Position numbers and translations under genes: made by a program
Origin: an uncultured Spirochaetota bacterium
Lineage (GTDB): Bacteria; Spirochaetota; B62-G9; DRHN01
Direction of reading: 5' to 3'
Length of the DNA stretch: 64,000 nucleotides
Assembly: GCA_964433545.1 (NCBI GenBank)
Contig: CAYSRJ010000003.1
Span: 64,904 to 128,903 of the forward strand
Notes under the pieces: model-generated
What the model was told of the DNA's origin: nothing
Database searches by the model: none
The model's input: only the letters and a program-made list of their open reading frames with translations
Part shown: positions 1 to 50,209 of the stretch, in pieces
Numbering within the stretch: the first letter of the stretch is position 1
Layout of the letters: every line of letters begins with the position of its first letter

Positions 1-152
1 TTCTGGGATTCGCCGAGGTTTTATTCGCCGGATTTCTGCCTCCGAACTACTCGGGGTACAGGGACGCCTTCGTTTTTGTTCTTCTTATCCTCATCCTGCT
101 CGTTCGACCCCAGGGGATTCTCGGATCACGAACTCGGGAGAGGAGAATCTGA
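1..152 (+). CDS. livH: branched-chain amino-acid ABC transporter permease, LivH-type, 3' end only (gene begins upstream of window)
   Basis: Frame-3 translation ...FAEVLFAGFLPPNYSGYRDAFVFVLLILILLVRPQGILGSRTRERRI* matches the conserved C-terminus of LivH-family permeases. Stop TGA at 150-152 overlaps the next start (TGATATG). Confidence 0.7.
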   Translation, partial: LGFAEVLFAGFLPPNYSGYRDAFVFVLLILILLVRPQGILGSRTRERRI

Positions 153-153
153 T

Positions 154-1179
154 ATGACAGACAAAAAACCCGTCGGACTCATCATACTCTCTCTTGTCGT
201 GCTTGGTATAATCGTCTTTTTTGTCAACACCTTTGCGAACAGCTATATAAAACGTGTTGCCAACCTGATGATGATATACATCATCCTTGCGGTAAGCCTG
301 AACCTTTTGACCGGATTTACCGGCATCGTTTCCCTCGGGCAGATAGGCTTCATGTCTATCGGCGCGTATACTTCCGCCATACTCACCCTGAGTCCCCGCC
401 TCAAGTACAGGTGGCTCATCGGGCTGCCTGAATGGCTGCAATCGGTGCACATGCATCTATTTCCTGCAATGCTCATAGGCGGTATCCTGTCGGTTATTAT
501 TGCCCTGGGAGTCGGGTATGTCATTCTGCGTCTCCGCGGTGTATATATAGCGGTGGCCACCCTTGGTTTTCTCGTCATCGTGAAGGTTATGGCTGAAAAC
601 TGGATCGGTGTCACAAGGGGAGGGCGGGGAATCTCCACGCTTCCCGGCTATACGAATCTCTGGTGGACAACGGGAGCTGCACTTGTAACGATATATGTCG
701 TATGGCGGCTGGTAAAATCACCCTACGGTCGAAAAATGACGGCAATACGGGAGCATGACCTTGCCGCGCAGAGCGTGGGCGTCCATGCGCCGAAAATACG
801 GCTCTTGTCCTTTACGGTGAGCGCCTTTTTTACCTCCATTGCCGGATCTCTCTGGGCGAATCTCATCGGTGTTGTATCGCCGGGCAGTTTCTACCTGTGG
901 CTTACCCTTCTCATTATCATCATGATGGTGGTCGGCGGAATGGGGAGCATCACGGGATCGGTTGTCTCAGTAATCGGCTTCACCATTCTTCTCGAGTGGC
1001 TGCGAAACTTCGAGAGTAGGGTTGCGGTTTACGGCATTCACTACATCCTGTTTGCGCTGATTTTTATGCTGATTATTATTTTTCGTCCCCAGGGCTTGTT
1101 TGGAACAAGAGAAATCAGCAGGGAGCAACTATCGGAGTTTATGCGCCGATTTTTAGGCCGAGGCAAAATCCGTACATAA
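154..1179 (+). CDS. livM: branched-chain amino-acid ABC transporter permease LivM-type
   Basis: ORF 76..1179; ATG at 154 (MTDKKPVGL) overlaps the livH stop. Multi-TM protein with a LivM-like C-terminus (...IIIFRPQGLFG). Confidence 0.85.
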   Translation: MTDKKPVGLIILSLVVLGIIVFFVNTFANSYIKRVANLMMIYIILAVSLNLLTGFTGIVSLGQIGFMSIGAYTSAILTLSPRLKYRWLIGLPEWLQSVHMHLFPAMLIGGILSVIIALGVGYVILRLRGVYIAVATLGFLVIVKVMAENWIGVTRGGRGISTLPGYTNLWWTTGAALVTIYVVWRLVKSPYGRKMTAIREHDLAAQSVGVHAPKIRLLSFTVSAFFTSIAGSLWANLIGVVSPGSFYLWLTLLIIIMMVVGGMGSITGSVVSVIGFTILLEWLRNFESRVAVYGIHYILFALIFMLIIIFRPQGLFGTREISREQLSEFMRRFLGRGKIRT

Positions 1180-1282
1180 GAAGGGAGGTGAGAGTGAAAT
1201 AGCATACGGTCACGATTAAGCCGACCGTAGATCAACTGAGCAATAGAGAGGTTTAAAAAATACACATATACGGAGGTGTACA

Positions 1283-2440
1283 ATGCGTAAGTTATTTATT
1301 CTTTTTCTGGTTGCAGCACTGGTTCTGGGCGCTCAGTTCGCCTTTGCCGGAAAAGGGGGAAACACGATCAAGATCGGCGCCATCGAGAACCTTACCGGTT
1401 CACAGGCGTCCCTTGATGCGCCATCTCTGAACGGAGTCAAGCTTGCCTTGAAGGAGGCCAATGATGCAGGCGGCGTGCTTGGTAAAAAAATCGAGCTCGT
1501 GGTTCGAGACGGCAAGTCCGATCCCGCAACCCTCGCTGTTGCTGCCGATGACCTTGTGAGAAAGGGTGTGGTAGCAATTACCGGTCTCAGTGACACAACT
1601 ATGGTTCTCGCGGCTGCACCTGCAGCTCAAAAAGCCGGTATACCCTTTGTTACCTCAGGCGCAACAGCACCCACCCTTCCAGATGAGGTTGGCGATTATT
1701 TGTTCATGGAGCCGTTCGGTGACAATGTGCAGGCAGCGGCAGCTGCGGAATACGCCTACCAGCAGGGCGCACGAACCGTGTGGATTCTCTACGACAAGGC
1801 CATGGACTATACCCTCCTGCTTCAGAAGTACTTCGCCGAGCGTTTCAAGCAAATGGGGGGTAAAATTATTTCAAGCGACACCTATCAGACGGGTGACACC
1901 GACTTCAGGGCTCAGCTTACACGCCTTAAGGCACTGAGCCCCCAGCCCGATATACTCTTTATTTCATCAGGACCGGATGATATCGGGACGATCATAAAAC
2001 AGGTGCGTGAGCTTGGAATCAACGCACCGATCGTCGGCGGTGACGGGTATGACACGCCCCTTCTCGTTGAGGTAGCCGGTTCCGACGCAGCGGATAATGT
2101 GTACTTTACCACACATATATCCTTTGACTCTCCCAAGGCCAAGGCATTTTCGGCAAAGTACAAGAAGATGTTCGGCCATGAACCGGAAAACGCCTTTGCC
2201 GCTCTGGGGTACGATGCCTTCAACCTGATCGTCGATGCAATCAAGCGGGCAGGCAGCGATGATCCCAAGGCGATTCGTGACGCCATCGCCGCAACAAAGG
2301 GATTTGAAGGTGTAACCGGCACAATCAATTATCCTCGCGGAAAGAGGGTGCCACAGAAATCGGTCACTATTATCCAGGTTAAAAAGGGCAAGTTCTTATT
2401 TTTAAACGAGGTCATGCCAAAAGAGATACCTACTCCATAA
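1283..2440 (+). CDS. livK: Leu/Ile/Val-binding periplasmic substrate-binding protein (LivK/LivJ family)
   Basis: Signal peptide MRKLFILFLVAALVLGAQFAFA. Mature N-terminus TIKIGAIENLTGSQASLDAPSLNGVKLALKEANDAGGVLGKKIELVVRDGKSDPA is typical of the Leu/Ile/Val-binding family. SD GGAGG lies upstream. Confidence 0.85.
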   Translation: MRKLFILFLVAALVLGAQFAFAGKGGNTIKIGAIENLTGSQASLDAPSLNGVKLALKEANDAGGVLGKKIELVVRDGKSDPATLAVAADDLVRKGVVAITGLSDTTMVLAAAPAAQKAGIPFVTSGATAPTLPDEVGDYLFMEPFGDNVQAAAAAEYAYQQGARTVWILYDKAMDYTLLLQKYFAERFKQMGGKIISSDTYQTGDTDFRAQLTRLKALSPQPDILFISSGPDDIGTIIKQVRELGINAPIVGGDGYDTPLLVEVAGSDAADNVYFTTHISFDSPKAKAFSAKYKKMFGHEPENAFAALGYDAFNLIVDAIKRAGSDDPKAIRDAIAATKGFEGVTGTINYPRGKRVPQKSVTIIQVKKGKFLFLNEVMPKEIPTP

Positions 2441-2478
2441 GTAGATGCGGAGTGAAGATGATCTCTGCCGTTTCATCA

Positions 2479-2523
2479 CTGCAGGTGCGCTTTTCCGGGG
2501 ACATTTCCCGGTGCGCATCTGCA
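2479..2523 (+). other. long imperfect stem-loop (ctgcaggtgcgc ... gcgcatctgcag) downstream of livK
   Basis: 12-nt arms with one mismatch around a structured loop (ccggggacatttcccgg). No T-run follows, so it may be a processing or attenuation structure rather than a classic terminator. Confidence 0.3.
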
Positions 2524-2588
2524 GATATAATGGATGGTATTCGGACGCTTCATGTTGGGACAATGTCGAAGATGCCGTAGGTGCTGTC

Positions 2589-2632
2589 AAGTACCGAAGG
2601 TGCCTGTGGTACTGAAAGTACCGCCGGTGCCC
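2589..2632 (+). promoter_or_regulatory. two 16-bp direct repeats AAGTACCG(AA/CC)GGTGCC in the 5' region of the creatininase/LeuA-like operon
   Basis: aagtaccgaaggtgcc at 2589-2604 and aagtaccgccggtgcc at 2616-2631, about 230 bp upstream of the start at 2855. Possible regulator-binding sites. Confidence 0.25.
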
Positions 2633-2854
2633 GTTCCCCTGGTACAAGCCATCGGCTTGATGCAGAGAATGTTGTGCCTGTCAGCCTTGAAAGGATTCAG
2701 TGATTAAAAACCGAACCGTATTGAAATGTTTTATTGAGCTGCACGCGGTCTATTGACCGTATACGGATAGAGAAACCGGAAGTACTGTTTGTAGATGCAG
2801 GGCAGCTGGAAGTGTAAAGAAAGTTCGCACTGTTACCGTACAAGGAGATACAGT

Positions 2855-3610
2855 ATGGATGAATATTTAGTTGAAGGATTAACTTCAAGCAGGTTCAAAG
2901 AAAAAGGTTTCGAAATTGCACTTGTTGCCGTCGGCTCCACAGAAACACACGGCTCCCACCTGCCGCTTTCCACCGATACATATGTCGCCTATGAGATTGC
3001 AAAAGCGGTCGCAAAACAGATTAAAAAAGCGTTTGTCGCGCCCCCTCTGTTTTTCGGAATGAGCGAACACTACCGTCAGGGGGCCTTTTTTATATCATTG
3101 AAACCGGAAAATTTGATATCAGTTCTTACCGACATCTTTGATTCCATCTACAGCAACGGTATCACACGCATTATCATGATAAACGGGCATGACGGGAACA
3201 TCGCTCCTCTCGAAGTAGCGGGAAGAAATTTCAAGGTTCATCACAAAGATGTTGTCATTGCTGTTCTCGAAAAATGGTGGGAGCTTCCCGGCAAAGTGCT
3301 GCCGGAGGGATTTTTCGAGGTGTGGGAGGGACTCGGTCATGCAGGTGAAGGGGAAACCTCCATGTGTCTGCACCTGTTTCCCGGTCTTGTCGAGATGGAT
3401 AAGGCGAAGGGCAGGGTGCCGTATCTGCCGAAAAACCTCGATGTGAAATGGGATTTCTCAGAGCTGACGGACACAGTTGCAACCGGTGATCCCACAAAGG
3501 CTACAGCTGAAAAGGGTAAAAAGATGATGGAAGTCGTCGTCGACGCAGTTGTCTCTTTTATAGAGGAGATGGATGAAAAAAAATGGCAGTACGGGTTTAA
3601 AACCTTTTGA
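2855..3610 (+). CDS. creatininase-family metal-dependent amidohydrolase (paralogue 1)
   Basis: MDEYLVEGLTSSRF...IALVAVGSTETHGSHLPLSTDTY carries the creatinine-amidohydrolase family signature (GS-E-HG-HLPL-TD). ATG follows SD AAGGAGA. Confidence 0.8.
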   Translation: MDEYLVEGLTSSRFKEKGFEIALVAVGSTETHGSHLPLSTDTYVAYEIAKAVAKQIKKAFVAPPLFFGMSEHYRQGAFFISLKPENLISVLTDIFDSIYSNGITRIIMINGHDGNIAPLEVAGRNFKVHHKDVVIAVLEKWWELPGKVLPEGFFEVWEGLGHAGEGETSMCLHLFPGLVEMDKAKGRVPYLPKNLDVKWDFSELTDTVATGDPTKATAEKGKKMMEVVVDAVVSFIEEMDEKKWQYGFKTF

Positions 3611-3629
3611 TACATATTTATCTGAAAAA

Positions 3630-5012
3630 ATGAAAGAACACCCTCTTCAAGAAGTCAAACGTCCCAAACTTCTGAAGAGCACCTTTCCCTATTCAATCCC
3701 GCCGCGCATACGGTTTGAAGATAAGATCAAAGACACAATCGACGGCAGGGAAATCGAGTTCGACACACCATCTGTCGAGAAAAGAGATCTCTTCATTACC
3801 GACACTACGTTCCGAGACGGCCAGCAATCACGCCCTCCCTACTCCGTCGAACAGACAAAAAAAATATTTGAGATGCTCTCGAAAGCCGGAGGCCCGCAGG
3901 GTGTTATCCGCCAGTCGGAGTTTTTCCTGTACACAAGGCAGGATAGGGCGAAGGTCGATGCCTGTAGGGAACTTGGCCTCAAATACCCCGAAATAACAGG
4001 GTGGATCAGAGCCCAGAAAGGCGAGCTCAGACCGGTGAAAGAAATGGGGCTGCGGGAGACCGGTATGCTCACCTCGTGCTCCGACTATCACATATTCTAC
4101 AAGCAGAAGCAGACCAGAAGAAAAGCTGCTGATCAGTATATACATGCCGTGGAGGATGCTCTTGAAGCGGGGATCAGACCGCGATGCCACCTGGAGGATA
4201 TCACCAGGGCGGATATTAAAGGATTTGTAATACCGTTTGTTCAGCGGCTTGAACGGCTTACCGAACAGAAGCCTGATTCCCTCAAAATAAAGATCCGCCT
4301 CTGCGATACAATGGGATTCGGTCTGTTTCTCCCGGGTATACCGGAGCCCAGGTCCATACCGAAGCTCATCTGGCTGATGATCAACGAGTGTGGTATACCG
4401 GGTGAGCGTCTTGAGTGGCATGGTCATAACGACTTTCACAAGGTGCACAGCAATGCCCTGGCTGCCTGGGTATACGGGGCCGACTCGGTAAACACGACCC
4501 TTTTCGGCCTCGGGGAGCGCACAGGAAACCCCCCGCTTGAAGGAGCGCTTGTCGAGTACGTGTCCATCAAGGGCAGGCTAAACGGCATACAACTTCCGGT
4601 CATAACACAGCTTGCCGACTACTATCAGTCTTCGATAGATGCCGCTGTACCCGCAAACTACCCGTTTGTCGGACGTGATTTCAACACGACGAGGGCAGGT
4701 ATTCATGCGAGGGGGCTTCGCAAAAACGAGAAGATTTACAGTATCTTTGATACAGCTGCGCTGTTGAACAGTCCGCCGAAGGTGGCCATCACCGATAAAT
4801 CTGGCACAGACGGTATAGCGCTCTGGGTAAACAATTTTCTCGGTTTGAAAGGGGATGAACGGCTTGCCCTGACAAAGGTCGTACGGATCCAGCGCTGGGT
4901 AATGGATCAGTATGAAAAAGAGGGGCGGCTTACCGCGATCTCAGAGAAGGAGCTTGCCGAACAGGTGAAGCTTCATTTCCCCGACCTGTACAGGAAAAAA
5001 AGACATGAATGA
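3630..5012 (+). CDS. DRE-TIM metallolyase, 2-isopropylmalate / homocitrate / citramalate synthase-like
   Basis: FITDTTFRDGQQS substrate/metal motif and HGHNDFHKVHSNALAAWVYGADSVNTTLFGLGERTGNPPLE (HxH..GERTGN) as in LeuA/NifV/CimA. An alternative start at 3573 would overlap the upstream gene by 38 nt. Confidence 0.7.
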   Translation: MKEHPLQEVKRPKLLKSTFPYSIPPRIRFEDKIKDTIDGREIEFDTPSVEKRDLFITDTTFRDGQQSRPPYSVEQTKKIFEMLSKAGGPQGVIRQSEFFLYTRQDRAKVDACRELGLKYPEITGWIRAQKGELRPVKEMGLRETGMLTSCSDYHIFYKQKQTRRKAADQYIHAVEDALEAGIRPRCHLEDITRADIKGFVIPFVQRLERLTEQKPDSLKIKIRLCDTMGFGLFLPGIPEPRSIPKLIWLMINECGIPGERLEWHGHNDFHKVHSNALAAWVYGADSVNTTLFGLGERTGNPPLEGALVEYVSIKGRLNGIQLPVITQLADYYQSSIDAAVPANYPFVGRDFNTTRAGIHARGLRKNEKIYSIFDTAALLNSPPKVAITDKSGTDGIALWVNNFLGLKGDERLALTKVVRIQRWVMDQYEKEGRLTAISEKELAEQVKLHFPDLYRKKRHE

Positions 5013-5039
5013 CACACCCATTCAAAGGTTATCCGGACG

Positions 5040-5064
5040 CTTTGCGTCCGGATAGTGTACCTGT
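5040..5064. repeat. REP-like palindrome TATCCGGACGCtttGCGTCCGGATA (copy 1 of 2)
   Basis: Perfect 10-bp arms between the convergent LeuA-like and ompA-like genes. A near-identical palindrome occurs at 39062-39086. Confidence 0.45.
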
Positions 5065-5107
5065 TTTGTACAGGCACCGTTATACCTCGTTTCGCATCAT
5101 ACAATGG

Positions 5108-5135
5108 CATTATAAACCGGGTAGAATGCACCCGG
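5108..5135 (-). terminator. putative rho-independent terminator of the ompA-like gene
   Basis: On the minus strand, CCGGGTgcattctACCCGG followed by TTTATAA, immediately after the stop at 5143. Confidence 0.4.
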
Positions 5136-5142
5136 CAGCGTA

Positions 5143-5841
5143 TCACATAACCCCTTCAAAGATTACGATAACCCGTCTGTTTTTGCGCCGCCCTGCCTTT
5201 GTTTCGTTTGTCGCAACAGGGTACAGCTCACCAAACGCCCGGATGCCGATTATCTCCGGATCGATACCGAGCTCAGACACCAGGGATTGTCTTACATTTT
5301 CAGCCCGCTCACGGGAGAGTTTGTAGTTGTGCGCTTCCGTGCCCACGCGATCCGCATATCCCTCCACGATAACTTGGGTAAGCTTGGCCGTGGGGTGAGC
5401 CTTCATAAAATTCACAGCCTCATCACGTTCGTTGAGATACTCAGGCTTTATATGAGCACTGTCGATATCGAATTCGAGAGTATACTCTATTTTGAATTTC
5501 TCGCCCTCCTCGACCGCACATCCATGGGCATCGACAATGGTTCCCGGTGCCGTGTCCGGGCACCTGTCTATATCATCCGGAATGCCGTCGCCGTCGCTGT
5601 CCACCTCGACAGCCGTCACCTGCGGCTCGGCCTGCGTTTCAGCTTGCGCTTCAACCTTTTCAGGCTCTTTTTTCTCGGGTTCCTGGGGCTGGGGTTCAGC
5701 CTCTGCCTGTTTCTCAGCCTGCTGCTCAACTGCAGGCTCCTCTTTGACGCTTTCGGATTTTGTTGCGCACCCCGAAAAGACAAGGAGTACGGAAAAAAAC
5801 ACGACACCTGTTATAGTCGGAATTTTCATCAGTTTCAGCAA
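5143..5841 (-). CDS. OmpA-family peptidoglycan-binding lipoprotein with thrombospondin-type-3 (DxDGDGIPD) repeat and an E/Q/A/P-rich linker
   Basis: Lipobox ...LLVFSGC. DSDGDGIPDDIDRCPDT. C-terminal OmpA-like domain (VIVEGYADRVGTEAHNYKLSRERAENV ... NRRV). The probable start is TTG, 6 nt after GGAGGG. Confidence 0.8.
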   Translation of the reverse strand: MLKLMKIPTITGVVFFSVLLVFSGCATKSESVKEEPAVEQQAEKQAEAEPQPQEPEKKEPEKVEAQAETQAEPQVTAVEVDSDGDGIPDDIDRCPDTAPGTIVDAHGCAVEEGEKFKIEYTLEFDIDSAHIKPEYLNERDEAVNFMKAHPTAKLTQVIVEGYADRVGTEAHNYKLSRERAENVRQSLVSELGIDPEIIGIRAFGELYPVATNETKAGRRKNRRVIVIFEGVM

Positions 5842-5917
5842 TTCTTCCCTCCTTTCAGTACACTAGGTAAAAAATATTCTATTACGTTTTTATTTAAAAG
5901 TACAGCAATTTCAGGGC

Positions 5918-6925
5918 TCAATTTTTCATGCTCGAATCGATCACTTTATCAAGCTTTTCGAGGAATTCCCTCTCTGAAAGCTCATACTTATTTATAAACT
6001 GCATGGTACCTATCTGCAGTTTCATACCCTCGGTCAAATTGGTTTTTTTGATAAACACGACCAGTATGTTCTTGTTTTCAGTAAAGGCAAGATTAATTTC
6101 GTTTCTCACGTTCCGCGACATCGCCGCATGAGGACTCATAAGAACGAGAAATTGGGTACAGTTGACAATAGCTTTCCCGACGATCTCGGGCCATTCATTT
6201 CCAGGCTCTATCCCCTCATCATACCATATTCGGTAGCGCTTCCTGTGAAGTTTTTTTATGATGCTGAAGACCGCTTTCATATCCTCATGTGCGTAGCTTG
6301 TAAAAAGGTATGAACGCACTCCATGATAAGCCTCAAAAGGCGGCTTGATCGGCGGCGCATGTCCCGTTCCTTTACTCTTTAAGGGTGATGTCTTCCTGGC
6401 GGGCTTTTTTGGAGCAGAGGTTTTTGCGGATACCTTTAGAGACGATTCCCGGTCCTTTTTCGCTGGTGATTTCTTTGCAGAGATCTTTTTTTGCACCTTT
6501 TTATCAGAGGTTTTAATTGCTGCTATTTTTTTTGCCGTGGATGTCTTTTTTGTCCCGGTACCCTTTTTTGCAGAAGCCCTGGTTGAAAGATCTTTCGAAG
6601 CAGTCGATCCGCCTTTCTTTGCCGCGGTTTTCTTCGTTCGTGATTTCGAAACAGCAGCAGGGGACGCCTTTCTTCCCGATAGTCCGGCCGAGGCTTTTAT
6701 CTTTGACCGGGCTTTTGATTTCGGTGTTTTTACTGATGCCGCAGTTTTTACTGCTGCCGTTTTATTTGAGCTCTTCGTTGCGGATTTTTTTGCAGAAGAT
6801 GTCAAGGTTTTTCCTGTCGACTTTGCGGCTTTTTTACCGGGTGCCCGTGAGGCAGATTTCAAATTCTGCTTCTTTTTAGCTGGAGTCCGGCTTTTTCTTG
6901 TCGCCTTCTTACTTCTCATGAACAT
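5918..6925 (-). CDS. TIR-domain protein with about 200-aa histone-H1-like Lys/Ala/Ser/Thr-rich N-terminal tail
   Basis: The C-terminal roughly 135 aa (SYLFTSYAHEDMKAVFSIIKKLHRKRYRIWYDEGIEPGNEWPEIVGKAIVNCTQFLVLMSPHAAMSRNVRNEINLAF...) fit the bacterial TIR fold: the conserved FISY-hED motif, then W-D, then the FLVLLSP-S motif. The N-terminus is low-complexity KKAAK/KTSAK repeats. Start chosen at the ATG 8 nt after GGGGAGAT (MFMRSKK); the track ORF extends to 7045. Confidence 0.8.
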   Translation of the reverse strand: MFMRSKKATRKSRTPAKKKQNLKSASRAPGKKAAKSTGKTLTSSAKKSATKSSNKTAAVKTAASVKTPKSKARSKIKASAGLSGRKASPAAVSKSRTKKTAAKKGGSTASKDLSTRASAKKGTGTKKTSTAKKIAAIKTSDKKVQKKISAKKSPAKKDRESSLKVSAKTSAPKKPARKTSPLKSKGTGHAPPIKPPFEAYHGVRSYLFTSYAHEDMKAVFSIIKKLHRKRYRIWYDEGIEPGNEWPEIVGKAIVNCTQFLVLMSPHAAMSRNVRNEINLAFTENKNILVVFIKKTNLTEGMKLQIGTMQFINKYELSEREFLEKLDKVIDSSMKN

Positions 6926-6957
6926 AGTCATATCTCCCCTGTACAAATGTATCCGAT

Positions 6958-9084
6958 CTATCCGATTTCGTTCCTCCGCTTGACGAGGTATATGGGATAG
7001 GTGCCAAACTTTTTCGGCAGAACAATAACACCAACGTATATGCACTCCAGCAGGTTTTGACTGTGTGATACAAGCAGTGACGCAAACTGCTCACTTGCAT
7101 ACACGTTTCCCGGGTTCGTTATCGGCTCAATACGCGCTGCTCTGTTTACATGACGGCCGAAATAGTTCATCTTTTTTAATATCGGCTCTTTTGCCCCAAA
7201 AACTGGACCGACATGCAGTCCTATCCGTATTTTCAGATCTTCAAAGAGGTACAGGCTCTTCCAGTCCTTTTTTTTCAATAAATCGCGGAGCTCGAGTGCA
7301 TATTCTGCTGCAGAAATAAGATCGTTGTATACGAAGTACAGAGCATCCCCCCAAATATTTTTAAAGATAGGCTTATGCTTCGTATTTTTCAGGCTTTGAG
7401 CGATGGCCCCAAGATAATTTTTTATAAAGAAGGGGATCTGCTCCTCTTTCAATGCACTGAACCCGGCAAGATCCGCAAACAACATTGCCTTCACCGAACG
7501 GTTCACATCCTTGACAGTGTCAGTCAGTTTAACAGGCGGAGCAGGAGAATGCAGTGTATCCGAAACAGATCCTTCGGCATTCATTTGACCCGTTTCCCCT
7601 TCTTCCGACGTACGTCTGTTGTCGGGAGAATCTGTTTCAAGTAATACGTTCGGGGATGGACCACTATCAGACACACTGCCGCTGTCCGGCATTCCAGTGT
7701 CCTCTATATCGTTACCCAGCAAAACGCCACGATGGGTTTTTCTTTCAGCACGCTGTTTTGAACGATTTTTACTAATCCTGTTAATATCAATGATCTCAAT
7801 AGGATATTTCTTATCTTCCCATGTTGTAATGAAATCGTACGTTCCTCCCGTCTTTCTACTCCCCTTGCCGTCCCACACTGCAATGAGAACGGACTCTGTT
7901 TCCAGAAGTTCGCTTCTTAAAAGTGTTTTTCCCATAATAATTCTATTCGCGTAATCGAACAGGAGGTCGTCACCAGAGTACTTTCCCTCCGTCGCCATGA
8001 GGACTGTGCTTCGTTTCAGGACTCGCTGTACTCGTTCAACCCATGCTCTGCCGGCAAACTCAACACTCGCATGTATAAAATCCTCTAATACGAAAGGAAG
8101 GATAATATTTGTTTCTGCTTTTCGTGTCTGCATGCACTCTAAAAAGAGTGTATCCGAACCGCAGGCCGCAGATGAGTAGCCTATTCCGGGATTGACACGT
8201 TCAAGCACATCACAAACCGCATTTTTTACATCTTCCTCGATGTCCGGCGGAAAACGGGAAGGCCTTCTTCCGGGTTTATCGATCATATGACCGGTAAAGG
8301 CGACAACAGGCGGCACCTTTAAAAGGGCAAATATTTCTTCTTCAATGTCGATATAATTCTTAAGCAGGCCCATCTGCTTGCGCGTGCTCGCCAGGTATGA
8401 AAAATTCTTCCCGCTGATACGCTGTGCGAATTTTAAGTACTGCAGGGCCTTCTCTGAATCTCCAAGAAGCAGAAGTCCCTCTCCCATTGTCGCGAGTATC
8501 CAGTAGTCACGTTTTTCACCCGCACTCATTCGATCCAGGCATATTTTCAACACCATCTTTGCGAGTCTGCCGGCATTTTCTCTTTCACCGAGCATAAGGC
8601 TCATACTCGCAGCATTTATTCCCGAATAGTAGCCTCTGCTCTTATTGAACGCCTTTAGATAGAAATTTTTTGATTTCTCGAGGTACGTGGTGTCACCCTG
8701 TGCCCCTCCTGAAATCACCCACATATCCTTGTACACCCGGCCCAGGATACCGAGCGTTTCTTCATCAAAATGGCCCTTTTTAACCAGGCCGGTGAGTATT
8801 TGCCGTGCCCTGTTTAAAAACCCGCATTTAATGAGCGAAAGGGCGTACAACTGTGTCAATCGTAGGTTTTCCGGAAAATATTCGAGCCCTTCCTTGAGAA
8901 CATCATGCGCAAACATCGACTGCCCGAGTTTGTCCGCGGTTTCACCGAGCCGAATGTAGAAGTGTGGCTGAGAGCTCCATGTAGAGTCGTCCTTGGAGAC
9001 CCAGAGCTCATGTATGACGTTTTCTATGTCTTCGGACTTTGAATCGAGATAGGTATTGAATTTTTTTATGCTTTTCTCTTCCAT
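6958..9084 (-). CDS. multidomain TPR-repeat + SLOG (LOG/DprA-like Rossmannoid) + class III adenylyl/guanylyl-type nucleotidyl cyclase protein
   Basis: C-terminus MLFADLAGFSAL ... WGDALYFVY ... IRIGLHVGPV ... GRHVNRAARIE carries class III cyclase catalytic motifs. The middle region VVAFTGH..GIGYSSAACGSDTLFLECM..ILPF..VLMATEGKYSGDD..LIAVWDGKGSRKTGGTYDFITTW matches the LOG/DprA (SLOG) pattern. The N-terminal third is TPR-like helical repeats, followed by an S/D/G/P-rich linker. Start chosen at ATG MEEKSIKK after GGGGAA; the track ORF begins at a TTG at 9198. Confidence 0.8.
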   Translation of the reverse strand: MEEKSIKKFNTYLDSKSEDIENVIHELWVSKDDSTWSSQPHFYIRLGETADKLGQSMFAHDVLKEGLEYFPENLRLTQLYALSLIKCGFLNRARQILTGLVKKGHFDEETLGILGRVYKDMWVISGGAQGDTTYLEKSKNFYLKAFNKSRGYYSGINAASMSLMLGERENAGRLAKMVLKICLDRMSAGEKRDYWILATMGEGLLLLGDSEKALQYLKFAQRISGKNFSYLASTRKQMGLLKNYIDIEEEIFALLKVPPVVAFTGHMIDKPGRRPSRFPPDIEEDVKNAVCDVLERVNPGIGYSSAACGSDTLFLECMQTRKAETNIILPFVLEDFIHASVEFAGRAWVERVQRVLKRSTVLMATEGKYSGDDLLFDYANRIIMGKTLLRSELLETESVLIAVWDGKGSRKTGGTYDFITTWEDKKYPIEIIDINRISKNRSKQRAERKTHRGVLLGNDIEDTGMPDSGSVSDSGPSPNVLLETDSPDNRRTSEEGETGQMNAEGSVSDTLHSPAPPVKLTDTVKDVNRSVKAMLFADLAGFSALKEEQIPFFIKNYLGAIAQSLKNTKHKPIFKNIWGDALYFVYNDLISAAEYALELRDLLKKKDWKSLYLFEDLKIRIGLHVGPVFGAKEPILKKMNYFGRHVNRAARIEPITNPGNVYASEQFASLLVSHSQNLLECIYVGVIVLPKKFGTYPIYLVKRRNEIG

Positions 9085-9159
9085 GATTTCGTTTCCCCGT
9101 TTGTTATCCCAAATCATAGCACATTTGGAAGAAAGAGTGGGGTTTTTTTGGCATCTATA

Positions 9160-9200
9160 TTCCATTTTATTAATAATATTCTCTAATGGAGAATACAAAC
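9160..9200 (-). promoter_or_regulatory. candidate sigma-70-like promoter with overlapping inverted repeat upstream of the cyclase gene
   Basis: Minus strand reads TTGTAT-17 bp-TATTAA. The spacer contains the inverted repeat ATTCTC-taatgg-AGAAT. Weak consensus match. Confidence 0.25.
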
Positions 9201-9241
9201 TAAATATCCGGGTGTGTCATGATAGGTTTACTACTTTTTTT

Positions 9242-9811
9242 TCAGGCGATTTCCCCAAACAGAGAAAGTGCACCGTACAGGACCGCATCATCCCACAGAA
9301 TAGCCCTCTCTATTGGTGTATTCGCATGGTTTTTAAAAAAGATCCTGCTCCTCACCCGTTCCCGTATGAGCTCGACAATGTTTGATTTTCCTGCGGTGAG
9401 CCCGCCGCCGATACCGGTGCTCATTGTGATATAGTATACCGATGAACAGTATTTTCCGCCCTCGTACAGGGCCTCTCCGAGGGCTGTGGCATTTGCATCA
9501 TTTTGTATTCGAACGGGCACGGAATACGCACGTTCAAGTGTCGATTTGAGATGAAACCCCTCCCAATCCGGTAAATTCGGCAGGGCGCCAAAAATGCCGT
9601 TATCGATGTTAAGCGGGCCCGGGGCTCCGATTCCAATTGCCTTCAAATTCTTCTGATTATGGCCAATAAACTCGTGTATGAGAAACTTGAGATCATTAAT
9701 AAATATTTCCGGGTTCTTTTTTGTTTTTATTTTTCTACTTGTTAAAAGACTGCCGTCTTCAAAACGACCTATCCATGTCTTTGTTCCGCCTATGTCGATA
9801 CCGACTATCAT
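9242..9811 (-). CDS. ROK/ASKHA-family sugar-kinase-like protein, unusually short (189 aa; C-terminal third with the zinc motif is absent)
   Basis: MIVGIDIGGTKT, GIGAPGPLNIDNG, QNDANATALGE and TGIGGGL are ROK hallmarks. The protein ends about 55 aa after the last motif with no CxCGxxGCxE region. Confidence 0.55.
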   Translation of the reverse strand: MIVGIDIGGTKTWIGRFEDGSLLTSRKIKTKKNPEIFINDLKFLIHEFIGHNQKNLKAIGIGAPGPLNIDNGIFGALPNLPDWEGFHLKSTLERAYSVPVRIQNDANATALGEALYEGGKYCSSVYYITMSTGIGGGLTAGKSNIVELIRERVRSRIFFKNHANTPIERAILWDDAVLYGALSLFGEIA

Positions 9812-10000
9812 TCTAACCGCCGATTGTTACCTGAAGGTCTGTCCGTTCCTCAATACGTTGTTTATAGGACATTACTTCTTCTGTGCGAAGTGATTTAATC
9901 TTATGTGCATTTGAAGGATTGGAATACCAGTTCCGCCGGGGCTGCTACTGTATGGACCAGTTCTTACCTGGTTTGTGTCCCGATAACGAGTTTTCCCGCA

Positions 10001-10888
10001 TTAATCTTTTTTGAAATACCCGTCACCGTACGGGTGCTCCTGTCCGAGGAACTCGCTTTTTGAAGCGCCCAATGTGTGACAGGGAAGAAGGTGCAGTTTT
10101 TTCACACCGATGTCTGCAGCATATTCAGCAATGGCAAAGAGGTCACTTTCATTCATGTTAAAACCGGGAACAACCGGCACCCTGACCGTTACATCCGGTA
10201 TAGTTCGCACCGCAGTACTGAGATTTTTTAGTACCTTTTCGTTTCCGATGCCGGTAAACCGCCTGTGGGTTTCTTTGTCCATGTGCTTGAGGTCGTAAAG
10301 TAGATGATCGATGTATGGAAGAGCCTCTTTGAACGTTTGCGAATCAACGTTGCCGTTTGTCTCGACTGCAGTGCTCAGATGATACTGTGCCGCAAGCCTG
10401 AGAAGCGATATAGCGAAATCCCTTTGAAAAAGAGGCTCTCCGCCTGAAACGGTGACTCCCCCGGCTCCACGACAGAATACCCTGTCCAAGAGCATCTCCT
10501 CCATCACGGCACCTGCGGTTATCTCTCTACCCACTATTCGAATGACCTCCGGAAAGCACACTTTCGCACACTCGAGACAGCTGCTGCATGCATCCCGGTC
10601 GATTTCCACCGCATTGGACGACGGATGCTTCTTTATCGCGCCTTCAGGGCAGATGTCGATACAATCGTACTCTCCGATGCACCGGGCGGGGTTGTACATT
10701 ATTTAAGGCGCATGCCCGATACCCTCCGGGTTTTCGCACCAGGGGCAGTGCATGTTGCACCCCTTGAGAAATACTATTGTCCGTATACCTGGGCTGTCGT
10801 GCACCGCGTAGTGCTGGATATCGAATACCACACCGGTGATTGATTCCAGGTCCTTCATCATGAATATGAACGATCCTCTCTGATGCAA
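10001..10888 (-). pseudogene. glycyl-radical-enzyme activating enzyme (radical SAM with two ferredoxin-like 4Fe-4S inserts), interrupted by an in-frame TAA
   Basis: The N-terminal piece (10703..10888) has [13 protein letters not shown] (CxxxCxxC). In-frame TAA lies at 10700-10702. The reading frame then continues CIGEYDCIDICPEGAI ... CSSCLECAKVC ... GGVTVSGGEPL (10001..10699). Both pieces are in the same frame. Confidence 0.65.
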
Positions 10889-11014
10889 AATATTTTGAAC
10901 TGCTGCTACTCAAAAATAACGAACACCGTAATTTTCATACCCTCTTATGCTCTAACATTGAGATGTACAGCTTATACCACCGCTGAATAACATATCCGGC
11001 GCCTCAAATTGAAA

Positions 11015-11042
11015 GCTTGTACCCCCCCCCGGGTACAACCAG
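11015..11042 (-). terminator. hairpin TTGTACCC-cccc-GGGTACAA downstream of the glycyl-radical-enzyme remnant
   Basis: Perfect 8-bp stem; on the minus strand it is followed by CTTTCAATTT. Confidence 0.3.
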
Positions 11043-11082
11043 TACGAAATATGTACTATGCACCCGAAATTTCCTCTTCATT

Positions 11083-12900
11083 TTAAACGGTATGCTCCGT
11101 CCTCGCGATAATATCGTCCTGCAGGGCCTCGTTCAGATCCACGAAAAACGCCGAATATCCCGCCACCCTTACCACCAGGTCCCTGTATTCATCCGGCCTT
11201 TCCTTTGCCTCTCTTAAAGTGTCCGCAGACACGACATTGAGCTGCAGATGTATATTCTTTAGCGTTATGAATCCCCTGATCAGGTCTGAAAACCTCGCAA
11301 GCCCCCGTCACCTTCAAGGGCCGAAGGATGAAACTTGAGGTTGAGCAAAGCGCCGTTTGAAGCCCTGATCTGGTCTATCCTGCTCACCGATTGCAGCACG
11401 GCAAGCGGCCCCTTTCTGTCCCTTCCTCTCACGGGAGACAGACCGCCGTCTGCAAGCGGTTCACCTGAAAGCCTGCCATCTGGTGTGGCGCCTACAGCCA
11501 AACCGAGCGGCACATGCGCGGACACGGTGTACAGTCCCGGCTGAAACTTCCCGCCCCTCTGGTTTTCATACTTCTCCACTTCACGGCTGTACAAATTCGA
11601 CCACTGGTAAGCGATTTCGTCGACTTCCGGAATATTGTTCCCGAATTTTGGAATCTTGTTCAGAATACGGTACCGGAGCATCTCATGCCTCTGAAAATTC
11701 CTGTCCAGTATATCGATCATTCTCGAGTATTCGATCTGTTTTTCTTCAAAGACCACCCTTTTTACGGAAAAAAGCGAATCGGCAATGTTCGCTACGCCCA
11801 CAGCCTGGGGGCCGGTAAAGTTGTAGAAGGCGCCACCGCCTGAAATGTCGATACCCTTTTCTAGGCAGTTGTCCACAAGTACCGAAAGAAACGGGGTCGG
11901 AAGCAGTGTATGGTGCGCAACGTCCACCGTATTACAGCCCTTCGCCATTTTTTCCACATATTTTTTGAGGTTATCCTCCATGGCATGCTCGAGAGAAGAA
12001 TAATCCCTATACGTTTTCTGCCGCATACTCACCTCTAACAGGCGGGCCGTATTGAACAGGGCAGCATCTTAAGGTATCACGAAGAAAAAAGGGGGAAAGC
12101 ACCTGGTCGAGCCTTCCCGGTGAAAACGAACTGCCGACGGACTCCAGATGAAGAATTACGAACAAAAACCAGAGCATCTGTACCGCTTCGATAAAGGTGT
12201 TGGGGGGCGAAGATGTAAGCTTTTCGCACCGTTCGGAAAACTCCTTTAGCCCCTTCCTGGAAGCCTCGTCCCTGTATCTCATAATAAATTTTGATGCCGC
12301 GCGGAGGGTGATGAGCACTGCATCATAGAAACCATGCATTTCAGGTTTATCGGTGCTCATTCTGTACTTCTGAACCTCGTCTGTCAGTCCGCCGATGCCC
12401 TTTGTAAGCCACTTCTCCGTATCGGGGATTATGTGACCCTGGGAGTGTGTCGTCTGGTTGAGGGTGTAAATACCCTTTTCAACCGGGTCCATGACATCGG
12501 TCGAAAGAGCACCAAGCAGATAATCCTTCAATGTCTTTCCCCTGAAAAAGGGAAGGACTTTTTCTCTCAACACCTGTTTATCTTCTGCCGTAATCTCGAA
12601 GGGTTCCTGCTCACGTATGCCGATCGTATCGAGCTCTTTTTCAAGCCAGTCTACAGCACCCTCAACAGCAGGCACACCCATCCTCGGAAAAACCGTTCTT
12701 CCGCCAATGATGAGCTCATCCTCACCCACTGCAATGGGTATGTTTTCAAGTATAGTTTCAAGCGCCCTTGCGCGCCTCAGAATAACGGGTTCCCCCTCCG
12801 TTTCGCTGTAGCTCTTCAAATAGTACAGACTCCTATCGAGGGATATACGCCGGTGTGTGTCCAGCACCCGGTCTTTCAGTTTCTTGATGCGCGGGGACAA
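11083..12900 (-). pseudogene. glycyl radical enzyme (PFL2 / glycerol-dehydratase-like family), frameshifted and probably internally deleted
   Basis: Three pieces in three frames. The N-terminal 297 aa (12007..12900) read MSPRIKKLKDRVL...WFLF..GRLDQ. The middle 250 aa (11280..12032) read ..GGGAFYN..GATPDGR..SNGALLNLKF. The C-terminal roughly 65 aa (11083..11281) read RVAGYSAFFVDLNEALQDDIIARTEHTV*, the glycine-radical motif. Total is about 610 aa, against about 750-850 aa for intact family members. Confidence 0.7.
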
Positions 12901-13025
12901 AGCCCTTTACTGCATCGGCAGATACTGCAATTTATTCATGACAGTCTCTCGATGAGTGGTCCGTTTTTCGCGATACGTACTCATGTGCTATCCTCTTTCT
13001 TCAGTAGGCCTTTTTCTGTTTTTCC

Positions 13026-13331
13026 TCACGAAAGTGAATCCTTTTTACTCTTCAGGTGAACGATTGTCGCGCCCCATCCGCCGGCGCCTTCGCCTGCAAG
13101 ACTGAAGGATTCGACCAGATCGATCTTTTTCAAAATGGAATGCACTGTCGCCCTCAGTATCCCCTTTCCCTTTCCGTGAACAATCCTCACCTGCATTATC
13201 CCCTTTTCCCTGCACAGGGCTAGGTAATCCGTAATAAGCCCCTTCACATCCTTCGGCTGAAAGACGTGAAGGTCAAGCGTCCCATCGATGGGAAGCTCGA
13301 CGGGCTCGAACTCCGGTTCAGAGGGATTCAT
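13026..13331 (-). CDS. Smr-domain protein
   Basis: DLHVFQPKDVKGLITDYLALCREKGIMQVRIVHGKGKGILRATVHSIL matches the DLHG...IIHGKG.G.L core of Smr domains. ATG follows AGGTGA. Confidence 0.7.
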   Translation of the reverse strand: MNPSEPEFEPVELPIDGTLDLHVFQPKDVKGLITDYLALCREKGIMQVRIVHGKGKGILRATVHSILKKIDLVESFSLAGEGAGGWGATIVHLKSKKDSLS

Positions 13332-13589
13332 TTCCAATCACCTGAAGATTATTCACATGGTAAATTCCGGCACTAGAATACTCTCTGTTTAATCGTTTAA
13401 AAAACCCATTTATAGCGGGGACACGCTGCCCTGCAGACAGCAATTGTGGGGACAGAGAAGAGGAATATCCAGGTTCAGTCTCCCTGCGGCCGGTTGAATG
13501 AAGCGCATCTGTTTAAAGAAGCATGCCGGGGCGCAAGACTCCACCGGTCCGCCCGCTTCATTACCAGACGGTCATACGAACTTCATATA

Positions 13590-14687
13590 TCAGGATTGTC
13601 CCCTGATACAGTGAAACTTCTCCGGGACAATAATGGTCACGTCCTCGCCCTTTTCATACATGCCCCTGCCCAGAGGGTCGGACACATCGACTATAAACGG
13701 CTCTTTACGCCCCTGTACCGCACATCTGTATCTCGCAATCGAGCCGATATAGGTGACATTCTGCACCACTCCTGCGATCGCATTATGGGCGGCCGCCTTG
13801 TGTTTTTTTTCAATGGCCGCTGATTCAGGCCTTATGATTGCAGTCACCCGGTCACCTGCTTTTAACGCGACTGCACTCTCGGCCGCCGTAACGAGCTCTC
13901 CCACCTCGGTGTCGATACTGCAATGTCTGCCGTCCGCTGTACGCACCCTGCCCTGCACCATGTTGATATAGCCGATGAACCCGGCCACGAAGAGTGTCTC
14001 CGGCCTCTCGTAGATTTCCGTTGGTGTTCCGATCTGCTCGATGCGGCCCTTATTCATCACCACGATTCTATCCGACATGCTCATCGCCTCTTCCTGGTCA
14101 TGGGTGACGAATATTGTGGTCAGGTTGAGAGACTGCTGAATTTTTCGAATCTCCTCCCTCATCATAACCCTGAGGCTCGCATCGAGGTTCGAAAGCGGTT
14201 CATCGAGCAGAATAAGCTCCGGTCTGAGCACGATGCTGCGCGCAAGCGCCACTCTCTGCTGTTGGCCTCCGGAAAGCTCGTTCGGCCTCCTGTTCTCGAG
14301 ACCCTCGAGCTGCACGATACTGAGAATGTTTTTAACATTTTCCTCTATCTTACTCTTTGAAAACTTTCTCAATCTCAGGCCATAGGCGATATTATCGAAA
14401 ACGCTCATATGGGGAAAGAGTGCGTAGTTCTGAAACACCATGCTCGTTTTGCGTTTTTCAGGGGGAATATCGTTTATTCTCTCACCGTGCATGACGATGT
14501 TGCCCTCAGTCGGATAGTAGAAGCCCCCTATCATTCTGAGCAGTGTCGTCTTGCCGCAGCCAGAGGGGCCGAGGAAGGTCACGAACTCCCCCCGCTTGAT
14601 ATACGGTATATCCAGGTGATCGACCGCAACGATCTCGCCGAAGCGTTTCGTAACATTACGAAGCGTTAAAACAGTGTCATTTTCCAT
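13590..14687 (-). CDS. ABC transporter ATP-binding protein with C-terminal TOBE domain (FbpC/PotA-like)
   Basis: Walker A GPSGCGKTT, signature LSGGQQQRVALAR, Walker B ILLLDEP, and a C-terminal TOBE-like region. Confidence 0.85.
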   Translation of the reverse strand: MENDTVLTLRNVTKRFGEIVAVDHLDIPYIKRGEFVTFLGPSGCGKTTLLRMIGGFYYPTEGNIVMHGERINDIPPEKRKTSMVFQNYALFPHMSVFDNIAYGLRLRKFSKSKIEENVKNILSIVQLEGLENRRPNELSGGQQQRVALARSIVLRPELILLDEPLSNLDASLRVMMREEIRKIQQSLNLTTIFVTHDQEEAMSMSDRIVVMNKGRIEQIGTPTEIYERPETLFVAGFIGYINMVQGRVRTADGRHCSIDTEVGELVTAAESAVALKAGDRVTAIIRPESAAIEKKHKAAAHNAIAGVVQNVTYIGSIARYRCAVQGRKEPFIVDVSDPLGRGMYEKGEDVTIIVPEKFHCIRGQS

Positions 14688-14689
14688 TG

Positions 14690-16351
14690 TTAAAACCCCT
14701 TCAGCATTTCCACGTTCGATTTTTGTGAGATAAGCTTTAAAAGCATGAGGCTGAGCGCAACAACAATGGTGAGTATCACCGCCATTGCGGACGCCTTGCC
14801 GATATTCCCCGTCTCCGCAAGCCGTAAAATAAGGAGTGATGCGAGATTCGTTCCCGGCGCAATAAGAAAAATAACCGCACTGATGGTAATCATCCCCACC
14901 ATGAAGGTATACAGAAAGCTCGCCGCAAACGCAGAGCTCATGAGTGGCAGCGCAATACGAATGAAGGTTTTGAAGCTGCTCGCGCCGAGGTCTCTGGACG
15001 CTTCCTCCATCGACACATCGATTTGATGAAGCTTGCTGACCCCCGCTTCAAGGCCGACAGGAAACTCCCTGAAGGAAATATTGATGATAATGATGAGAAG
15101 CGTCCCCGTAAGCAGCAGGGGATGCCGGTTGAAAACGAGAATATAACCGATCCCCATTACCGTTCCGGGTACGGCAAAGCCCAAAAGCGCGATGAACTCG
15201 AGAAGCTGCCTCGCCTTCGGCTTCTTTCGTATCAGCACATACGCGAATATTATCGATGTGAAAGAGGTGATAACCGCCGCAACGGTTGAAACCGTAAACG
15301 AAGTTTTCAATGCCCTCCAGCCTGCATAGCTTGCGAAGTGCTTAAAGGTAAGCGTATTATTGATCATGAAGAGCTTTGTGATGGAGCTGAGAAAAATAAC
15401 GGTGAAACAGGCAAGAATAGTGAGGCATACGAGAAGCGCAATAAGAAAAAATGGATACTTGATAAACCAGGCGACTTTTCTGCTCTCCGTTCCGGACATC
15501 TGGCCGCCCACTGTTACAAACGACCCCTCTTTCAGTATGTAGTTCTGTATGACGTACACGACAATAGACGGAATTATAAGCAGTATGCAGAACACAGAAG
15601 CCATTTCAACATTTTGCTCTCCTATCCACAGATTATAGGCATCGGTCGCCATTATGGGAAGCCCGCCGCCGATGAGCATCGGGTTTCCAAAATCCGCGAG
15701 CGACATGATGAATACGAGAAGTGCAGCTTTGAACAGCCCCGGCAGAGAAAGGGGCAGTATCACCTTGAACAGGGTCGTTGCCTGGCTTGCCCCGAGGTCC
15801 GACGATGCATCTTCCAGCGACGGATTGAGGGACTGCAGGACATTGTTCACCATTAAAAACCCCAGGGGGAGAAACGAGAGAACCTGTGCTGTAATAAGTC
15901 CCGGCCAACCGTAGATGTTCGGGCTTATCTTCAACAAAAGATAGATCAGACCGCGCCTTCCAGCGATGATAATCAGCGCAAGAGAAAATATGAAGGGCGG
16001 CGCAATAAGAGGCAAAATCGCAATGTTTCTCAGAAACCCCTTCAGCGGCAGTCCAGTCTTGTTGATCGTATAGGATATGGAAAAAGAGATAATAAGAATA
16101 ATCGTCGTTGTAACGGCGCCGAGTATAAGCGTGTTGACCATCGACTTGTAGTAGTAGGAGTACTTGAAAAAGCTTGCGTAGCTCAAAAGCGAGAGCTGAC
16201 CTTTATACCGGAAGGATTTCACGAGCACGGAAAAAACCGGGTATACTACAAAAAGCAGAAGAAGCAGCGTCATAATAACTGTAATTCCAATGAATACCGG
16301 GTCTTTTTTCATCCCCAGCGCTGTGCCTCTTTCACGTACAATACTCGCCAT
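14690..16351 (-). CDS. ABC transporter permease, fused double-domain (FbpB/AfuB-like, about 12 TM)
   Basis: 553 aa with two tandem permease halves, each carrying EAA-like loops. Confidence 0.85.
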   Translation of the reverse strand: MASIVRERGTALGMKKDPVFIGITVIMTLLLLLFVVYPVFSVLVKSFRYKGQLSLLSYASFFKYSYYYKSMVNTLILGAVTTTIILIISFSISYTINKTGLPLKGFLRNIAILPLIAPPFIFSLALIIIAGRRGLIYLLLKISPNIYGWPGLITAQVLSFLPLGFLMVNNVLQSLNPSLEDASSDLGASQATTLFKVILPLSLPGLFKAALLVFIMSLADFGNPMLIGGGLPIMATDAYNLWIGEQNVEMASVFCILLIIPSIVVYVIQNYILKEGSFVTVGGQMSGTESRKVAWFIKYPFFLIALLVCLTILACFTVIFLSSITKLFMINNTLTFKHFASYAGWRALKTSFTVSTVAAVITSFTSIIFAYVLIRKKPKARQLLEFIALLGFAVPGTVMGIGYILVFNRHPLLLTGTLLIIIINISFREFPVGLEAGVSKLHQIDVSMEEASRDLGASSFKTFIRIALPLMSSAFAASFLYTFMVGMITISAVIFLIAPGTNLASLLILRLAETGNIGKASAMAVILTIVVALSLMLLKLISQKSNVEMLKGF

Positions 16352-16389
16352 TGTAATCTCCCAAACCCTCTCGTACAGTTTCGATTGTG

Positions 16390-16422: not shown

Positions 16423-16446
16423 AAAAGTGATCTTTTTTTGAATCGG

Positions 16447-50207: not shown

Positions 50208-50209
50208 TT

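Follow-up and report, generated by a model that had tools for sequence, protein, structure and literature searches.

The described systems closest to the gene pair analysed here are TIR-based signalling systems. In the validated Thoeris type VIII, a TIR protein is encoded next to a CMP-hydrolase-TPR protein, ThsI, the signal is cyclic ADP-ribose (cADPR), and the TPR of ThsI is its presumed sensor (bioRxiv 10.64898/2025.12.03.692087). In the same work, Yirmiya et al. credit Aravind and colleagues with the prediction that this TPR acts in bacterial TIR signalling. In Thoeris type I, which is closest to the present pair in its sensor logic, the TIR protein ThsB is combined with the SIR2-SLOG protein ThsA, whose SLOG domain binds 3'cADPR made by the TIR protein. 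SLOG domains of the YpsA clade have been connected with cADPR sensing as well. The pairing of TIR with TPR-S was reportedly predicted computationally by Burroughs and Aravind in 2020, as related in papers citing that study. The known TIR signalling systems end in effectors that kill or deplete, such as an NADase, a pore, a protease or a nucleotide hydrolase. The pair described here lies at 5918..9084 of a 64-kb stretch of DNA from an uncultured Spirochaetota bacterium (the window, 1..64000) and joins a TIR gene to the gene of a TPR-S-SLOG protein with a C-terminal class III nucleotidyl cyclase domain.

Two co-directional open reading frames (ORFs) on the minus strand fill this region, with the TIR gene 32 nt downstream of the cyclase gene, in agreement with a sequence-only reading of the same DNA. 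Their features are as follows:

6958..9084, minus strand: gene for the TPR-S / SLOG / class III cyclase protein, 708 aa, ATG at 9084 (ORF, Pfam)
8347..9084, minus strand: N-terminal all-helical TPR region, residues 1-246 (Pfam, profile-to-structure match, model)
8602..8895, minus strand: TPR-S match within the TPR region, residues 64-161 (PF20308)
7735..8322, minus strand: SLOG domain of the YpsA-like clade, residues 255-450
7510..7734, minus strand: variable linker, predicted to be disordered, residues 451-525 (predicted local distance difference test, pLDDT, <50)
6979..7503, minus strand: class III nucleotidyl cyclase catalytic domain, residues 528-702
6926..6957, minus strand: intergenic spacer of 32 nt with GGAG at 6934..6937 (sequence, terminator scan)
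5918..6925, minus strand: gene for the protein with a basic region and a TIR domain, 335 aa, downstream of the cyclase gene (ORF, Pfam)
6347..6925, minus strand: polycationic, histone-H1-like N-terminal region, residues 1-193 (composition)
5921..6346, minus strand: TIR domain, residues 194-335, with the codon of the putative catalytic Glu276 at 6098..6100 (Pfam, alignment)

With Thoeris type VIII and with BcTir/BcTpr, the pair shares the layout of a two-gene unit in which a stand-alone TIR is found beside a TPR-carrying protein. However, in ThsI and BcTpr an N-terminal CMP-hydrolase/glycosidase domain is followed by the TPR, whereas the window protein consists of TPR-S, SLOG and a class III cyclase, and no CMP-hydrolase/DRHyd domain, as expected of a type VIII effector, was found in it. 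In addition, the TIR of the window pair has an H1-like N-terminus, and type VIII, a system abundant in Pseudomonadota, was discovered through its enrichment in defence islands, while the window pair lies outside them. Compared to type I, the presumed output is a cyclase instead of a SIR2 NADase, and there is an extra TPR-S domain. The general Thoeris plan, a stand-alone TIR with a catalytic Glu beside an effector gene whose product carries a SLOG, Macro or TPR domain, can be recognized in the sequence, with the effector role of the partner assumed and its SLOG fold and TPR-S counted by domain presence only. The pair also resembles Pycsar, where a class III-type cyclase gene adjoins a TIR-domain gene, but the window TIR lacks the defining domain for binding a cyclic mononucleotide (cNMP), and the window cyclase has large N-terminal sensor domains.

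Neither PADLOC nor NCBIfam gave a system-level match, in keeping with the statement of the sequence-only reading that the architecture matches no named system. PADLOC reported no ThsA match and only weak ThsB matches (9.4e-4 and 0.013), and the NCBIfam ThcB4 score of 0.024 was far under the cut-off. A class III cyclase output, the order TPR-S-SLOG-cyclase and an H1-like TIR were all absent from the text of the 2025 Thoeris survey and from the supplements searched, and they were not found elsewhere in the searched literature, with Burroughs and Aravind 2020 and Tal et al. 2021 outside the search. A paper on S. meliloti CyaB and cytokinin was considered and proved irrelevant. The designation of the whole module as undescribed therefore needs to be narrowed: the TIR/TPR-S pairing had been predicted and, in type VIII, validated, while the cyclase output and the H1-like TIR appear undescribed in a comparison that lies outside Burroughs and Aravind 2020.

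Conservation of the TIR and cyclase genes as a unit

The conservation of the pair was assessed in 50 Spirochaetota loci from a species-representative genome collection, five of which are cut by contig ends. In all 45 evaluable loci, the TIR gene is located downstream of the cyclase gene on the same strand, and the spacer measures 4-40 nt, or is replaced by an overlap of a few nt, in nearly all loci. The TIR-carrying ORF is open from just past the cyclase stop codon in nearly all loci, and for a handful of them no ATG start could be placed. These two genes are the only ones common to 43 non-redundant loci, as the flanks are kept solely within subclades. The pairwise divergences of the two proteins are correlated with r=0.90, a value attained by none of 2000 Mantel permutations. 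The synteny of the window is shared with relatives at 91 % and 80 % identity. Given this strict co-occurrence, co-divergence and operon-like spacing, the cyclase and TIR genes are a real, self-contained and co-conserved unit. The two-gene nucleotide-signalling module proposed from the sequence alone is thus upheld, and so is its co-conservation in a gene-neighbourhood check across the Spirochaetota loci.

The start of the cyclase gene at ATG 9084 agrees with the aligned N-termini of homologues. For the TIR gene, alternative ATGs are present at 6931 and 6919; the GGAG at 6934-6937 best suits 6925, and the gap of 32 nt between the genes presupposes this start. No terminator-like site was found by the terminator scan on the minus strand within the spacer at 6926..6957, and the promoter and terminator scans were uninformative overall, with results at or near shuffle expectation.

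Domains and catalytic residues of the two proteins

The assignment of TPR, SLOG, cyclase and TIR domains in the sequence-only reading was correct, and the TPR part can be specified as TPR-S, or ASK1-type. In Pfam, the cyclase protein matches TPR-S (PF20308, 'Tetratricopeptide Repeats-Sensor') at residues 64-161 (3.7e-20; 72.9 bits against a cut-off of 27.6), MAP3K_TRAF_bd/DUF4071 (PF13281) at residues 73-246 (1e-15; 58.1 bits against a cut-off of 24.1) and Guanylate_cyc at residues 533-673 (8.6e-13). PF20308 and PF20301, both Pfam families of the alphaproteobacterial cassette described below, presumably derive from Burroughs and Aravind 2020. The family profile reaches the ASK1 TPR structure 5ulm at 7e-4, and in the AlphaFold model of the full-length protein (pLDDT 82.4, predicted template modelling score 0.80) the TPR region is formed by 14 helices. 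The likeness to animal ASK1 (MAP3K5), seen in the matches to MAP3K_TRAF_bd and 5ulm, concerns the TPR scaffold only, which is joined to a kinase in ASK1 and to SLOG and a cyclase in the window protein. Since the TPR-S module is common to animal ASK1, its ligand would bear on ASK regulation, too.

The SLOG domain has a Rossmann-like fold nearest to YpsA with the GxD/E signature present, and it keeps GGT-x-[DE] and glycine-rich loops reminiscent of LOG enzymes. It is separated from the cyclase domain by a 75-residue linker, which varies in length and is unalignable among homologues. The cyclase domain shows the hallmarks of class III (PF00211), namely the fold, two metal-binding Asp and the transition-state Asn/Arg, and the catalytic residues D538, D580, N647 and R651 are conserved. 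All motifs of the cyclase protein that the sequence-only reading quoted are present and show little or no variation among 32 homologues. The profile support that this reading called for was found for the conserved catalytic residues of both the cyclase and the TIR domain. Judged by these motifs, the cyclase domain looks catalytically intact.

The canonical specificity pairs of such cyclases are Lys/Asp for ATP and Glu/Cys for GTP. In the window protein, both substrate-specifying positions are Asn, with N576 aligned to the Glu and N640 to the Cys of a guanylyl cyclase. Both residues are invariant in the 32 homologues and form neither canonical pair, and the base of the product is therefore not readable from the sequence. 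In the wider family, an N-x-W-G-D motif is present in 52 of 67 members. In its fold, the domain resembles canonical adenylyl/guanylyl cyclases more closely than the solved pyrimidine (Pycsar) cyclases. The architecture of the protein is shared by more than 319 full-length homologues, nearly all of them from uncultured Spirochaetota; where the sources give a name, it is 'DUF4071', 'TRAFs-binding' or 'class 3 adenylate cyclase'.

The TIR protein matches TIR_2 at residues 208-314 (7.7e-16) and ThsB_TIR (1.5e-6) in Pfam, and, as had been noted before, it has no match to the cNMP-binding domain PF00027. Across aligned Spirochaetota homologues the TIR domain is 55-75 % identical. Glu276, within SRNVRNE, shows no variation among 30 homologues, and its counterpart in the TIR domains of Cat1 and TLR is their conserved motif Glu. 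When PDB sequences were searched with the TIR profile, the matches were marginal only, the best at 0.015. Based on the conserved Glu and the profile matches, this domain looks catalytically intact, too.

The H1-like basic region had been described as a tail of the TIR protein; it is in fact formed by the N-terminal 193 residues, and the TIR domain is C-terminal. These residues comprise 50 Lys, 10 Arg, 4 acidic and 1 aromatic residue, which gives a net charge of +56 and an isoelectric point of 12. The Pfam HC2 match in this region is sub-threshold (0.014), and no tandem DNA repeats were found under it. A comparable basic region is present in nearly all loci, with a length of ~110-340 aa, a Lys plus Arg content of 29-55 % and an Asp plus Glu content of about 0.

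A long, Phe-rich antisense ORF (window 6345..6983, plus strand) crosses the TIR gene in its 5' half, which is Lys-rich, and the same antisense ORF is seen in relatives (L001, 8111..8716, and L005, 7956..8471, both minus strand). In public annotations, it is often this antisense ORF that is called, and the TIR gene is cut down to 120-211 aa. Therefore, the H1-like region is hidden in databases.

The wider family and the direction of signalling

A profile of the SLOG domain retrieved 4401 representatives of clusters formed at 50 % identity, and E was <1e-30 for 908 of these. Among 67 sampled representatives, TPR-S was found in 62, the cyclase in 58 and an N-terminal RyR domain in 8. The TPR-S-SLOG-cyclase proteins are a large, multi-phylum family, annotated only as 'DUF4071/TRAFs-binding/adenylate cyclase', and no paper devoted to this family was found in the searched literature. 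In Verrucomicrobiota (loci L054, L059, L061 and L062, also L053, L060 and L063), the orthologues are 35-39 % identical and have a RyR domain (PF02026, down to 5e-34) added at the N-terminus; in four of the five evaluable loci, they stand back to back with a divergent 1400-aa TIR-WD40 gene. The alphaproteobacterial loci (L064, L065, L066, L067 and L079, the last on the Novosphingobium megaplasmid NZ_CP141945, where it is unannotated) contain a cassette in the order TIR-TPR, small ORF, TPR-S-SLOG(-cyclase) and Crp-family cNMP_binding + HTH gene, the latter abutting the TPR-S gene in 4/4 evaluable loci. This cassette shares with the window pair a TIR protein and an orthologous TPR-S-SLOG(-cyclase) protein, with an identity of 28-35 %. 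However, it has four genes instead of two, its TIR carries TPR repeats instead of a basic region, a Crp-type receptor is adjacent, and some members have no detectable cyclase domain. The small ORF of the Novosphingobium locus matches Pfam pNTSase1 ('predicted novel nucleotide synthetase', 2.9e-68), while those of L064 and L066 have no Pfam match. The TIR-TPR protein of L079 contains a hydrophobic stretch that, as read from its sequence, is apparently transmembrane.

Among metagenomic loci, the next gene encodes DUF4062(TIR-like)-NACHT-TPR in L071 and a TIR with a zinc ribbon in L077, and a TIR-like ORF was found within the available flanks in 25 of 80 further loci. Searches for mobile copies gave no phage matches and partial plasmid matches only. 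The match from Caballeronia (L078) was set aside as a different TPR-cyclase with no TIR neighbour. One locus, L080 (4001..6685 and 2050..3801), holds a TIR that is 65 % identical and belongs to the same subfamily with a basic N-terminus, and no cyclase adjoins it. Next to this TIR, a 613-aa protein is encoded in which four transmembrane-like segments and SLOG-like motifs (IGMTGHR, DGAD, ILPM, IALWNG......GGT) can be seen, and a caspase (Peptidase_C14) gene lies divergently upstream.

For three atypical long relatives (L073, L075 and L076), no TPR-S match is recorded, and a TIR neighbour is lacking. In L076 (5001..7906 and 681..2486), the SLOG-cyclase is fused to an HATPase_c_2 (anti-sigma-kinase-like) domain and is followed by a STAS gene, which suggests a partner-switching output; a cNMP_binding-patatin gene is located two genes upstream.

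Taken together, a Thoeris-like two-gene relay is the reading that we favour, and we give it about an even chance of being correct. In such a relay, the TIR protein would be the input enzyme and, once activated, would convert NAD+ into an ADP-ribose-derived small molecule, possibly a cADPR isomer or a related compound. By analogy with homologous sensors, this molecule would bind the N-terminal TPR-S and/or the YpsA-type SLOG of the partner. Binding would turn on the C-terminal class III cyclase, active as a dimer only, and the resulting 3',5'-cNMP would act on receptors encoded elsewhere in the genome. In spirochaetes, the H1-like polycationic disordered region would stand in place of the sensor repeats that a TIR partner usually has; speculatively, the activating step may be a concentration or assembly of TIR domains that this region brings about on a polyanion (DNA, RNA or polyphosphate). 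We infer not only this direction of flow but also the ligands, the product and the biological role, be it immunity or physiological stress signalling.

Several observations argue for this direction. Pfam scans of the TIR partners detected no cNMP-binding domain in any lineage examined, and the cyclase protein holds both domain types linked to TIR-product sensing, SLOG and TPR, as far as domain presence tells. Because the TIR partners lack a cNMP-binding domain and the cyclase protein carries TPR-S and SLOG, the cyclase is likelier an output than a signal-generating sensor. For the same reason, the flow from a cyclase-made signal to a TIR effector, as first proposed, is probably backwards. TIR partners elsewhere carry WD40, TPR or STAND, which are typical input sensors and point to TIR as the input, and the adjacent cNMP readers in Alphaproteobacteria are Crp-type regulators and not TIR proteins, which points to cNMP as the output. 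The pairing of the L080 TIR with a different protein fits a signal generator with exchangeable effectors.

If the output is a nucleotide cyclase, the two major families of messengers in bacterial immunity and physiology, the NAD-derived ones and the cyclic mononucleotides, would be joined in a single cascade. A more specific version is rather improbable: the cNMP would reprogram transcription or physiology via Crp-type readers in a non-killing, amplifying manner, and the spirochaete TIR would assemble on nucleic acid or another polyanion via its H1-like region. If true, TIR immunity or stress signalling would have an amplifying branch that is non-abortive, with the spirochaete TIR as a sensor of nucleoid state or foreign DNA that has no dedicated receptor domain. 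The H1-like TIR also suggests a simple and testable way in which a TIR enzyme that lacks receptor repeats could be activated.

A number of points weigh against the relay. A SLOG domain with LOG-like motifs could be an enzyme instead of a sensor. In the BcTir/BcTpr preprint, the TPR protein and not the TIR made the cADPR isomer (bioRxiv 10.1101/2023.05.26.542521), and TIR-to-TPR signalling is therefore unsettled even in the nearest validated system. In spirochaetes, a cNMP receptor next to the pair is absent from all loci but L030, where a cNMP_binding-HD (HD_5) protein is encoded ~760 nt downstream of the TIR gene. In L064 and L079, the cyclase domain is undetected by Pfam and the Crp-like gene is kept. 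A TIR neighbour was undetected in 55 of 80 wider-family loci, for which short flanks and a home-made hidden Markov model are partly responsible. Finally, the idea that the L080 partner opens with the same SLOG was reduced to a lead only, with four motifs found by eye, a profile score of 7 bits and an hhalign probability of 18 %.

The first rival explanation retains the original, Pycsar-like flow: the TPR/SLOG-cyclase would sense infection and make a cNMP that activates the TIR as an NAD+-depleting effector. The position of the cyclase gene first in the operon, a weak PADLOC match of the cyclase to PycC (2.6e-5) and a best PADLOC match of the TIR to a pAgo-associated TIR (1.6e-5) are compatible with it, as is the role of TIR domains as NADase effectors in the Pycsar, CBASS and pAgo systems described in the literature. 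This explanation is nevertheless improbable: the absence of a cNMP-binding domain from the TIR protein extends to every lineage examined, the input-type sensors on TIR partners and the Crp-type receptors speak for the opposite flow, and the nearness of the cyclase fold to canonical cyclases points away from it. A second possibility is that no diffusible TIR signal exists and the TPR binds the TIR protein directly, with the contact regulating the cyclase, and SLOG and/or TIR acting jointly on a nucleotide, for example with SLOG as an N-glycosidase. The preprint mentioned above reports a BcTir-BcTpr complex that is required, TPRs are classical protein-binding scaffolds, the LOG-like motifs retained in SLOG suit an enzyme, and the tight co-divergence of the two proteins fits a physical interaction. 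However, type VIII TIRs make cADPR in a phage-dependent manner, and cADPR alone triggers effector toxicity (bioRxiv 10.64898/2025.12.03.692087). Moreover, TIR partners are diverse across phyla while TPR-S/SLOG is conserved, so that a small common ligand fits better than a protein interface, and we regard direct complex formation as unlikely.

The strongest alternative concerns the role of the pair and not its wiring. It may be a domesticated physiological module instead of an immune one, coupling the state of NAD+ or of the nucleoid to cNMP-controlled physiology with either direction of flow, and we consider this a serious possibility that falls somewhat short of an even chance. The 150 immediate neighbours, drawn from ~40 loci, are genes for transport, redox functions and metabolism, including ABC, MFS and EamA transporters, radical-SAM, GGDEF, OsmC and ComFB genes. 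No genuine enrichment of defence genes was detected among them, the PADLOC matches being of a generic ATPase type. The lack of phage copies and of more than partial plasmid matches, the stable synteny inside subclades, the unusually high conservation of the TIR domain and the retrieval of one locus per chromosome in two complete chromosomes of metagenome-assembled genomes all fit such a module. There is also a precedent in the literature in the 'institutionalised' YpsA, which acquired a housekeeping role in Firmicutes. On the other hand, the family adjoins TIR-STAND, TIR-WD40 and caspase genes in other phyla, as is typical of conflict systems, all validated pairs of TIR with TPR or SLOG have so far been antiphage, and the differing flanks among subclades indicate that the pair relocates as a unit. 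The defence role assumed in the sequence-only reading thus receives no support from the Spirochaetota context, and it is unproven for the spirochaete pair because its neighbours are housekeeping genes.

Genes around the pair

The flanking genes of the pair are a truncated ROK gene and an OmpA-family lipoprotein gene, as confirmed with Pfam. The G+C content of the pair is 0.42-0.46 and thus slightly lower than the window mean of 0.487, and no tRNA genes or Rfam families at the gathering threshold were found in the whole window. In other Spirochaetota, the surroundings are conserved at the level of subclades. One Spirochaetaceae subclade has a ComFB-family gene divergently oriented upstream of the pair, and another has a small GGDEF gene upstream and an OsmC gene downstream. 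Besides L030, the loci concerned are L005 (5176..5934); L010, L011, L013, L015 and L040; and L022-L026, L041-L047 and L081. These neighbours, the cNMP_binding-HD protein of L030 included, could be readers of the output or mere retained synteny.

Directly upstream of the cyclase gene, at 9242..12900 on the minus strand of the window, lies a series of decayed genes. It includes a ROK fragment of 189 aa that covers profile positions 2-141 of 294, and a glycyl-radical activase fragment at 10001..10699 together with a 61-aa ORF at 10703..10888. Of a PFL-like enzyme, two separate pieces are left, with the middle portion gone: 12007..12900 corresponds to profile positions 1-294, and 11280..12032 corresponds to positions 477-647 plus a partial Gly_radical domain. 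In L001, the relative with 91 % identity, this decayed run is reduced to a PFL-like/ROK remnant of 327 aa.

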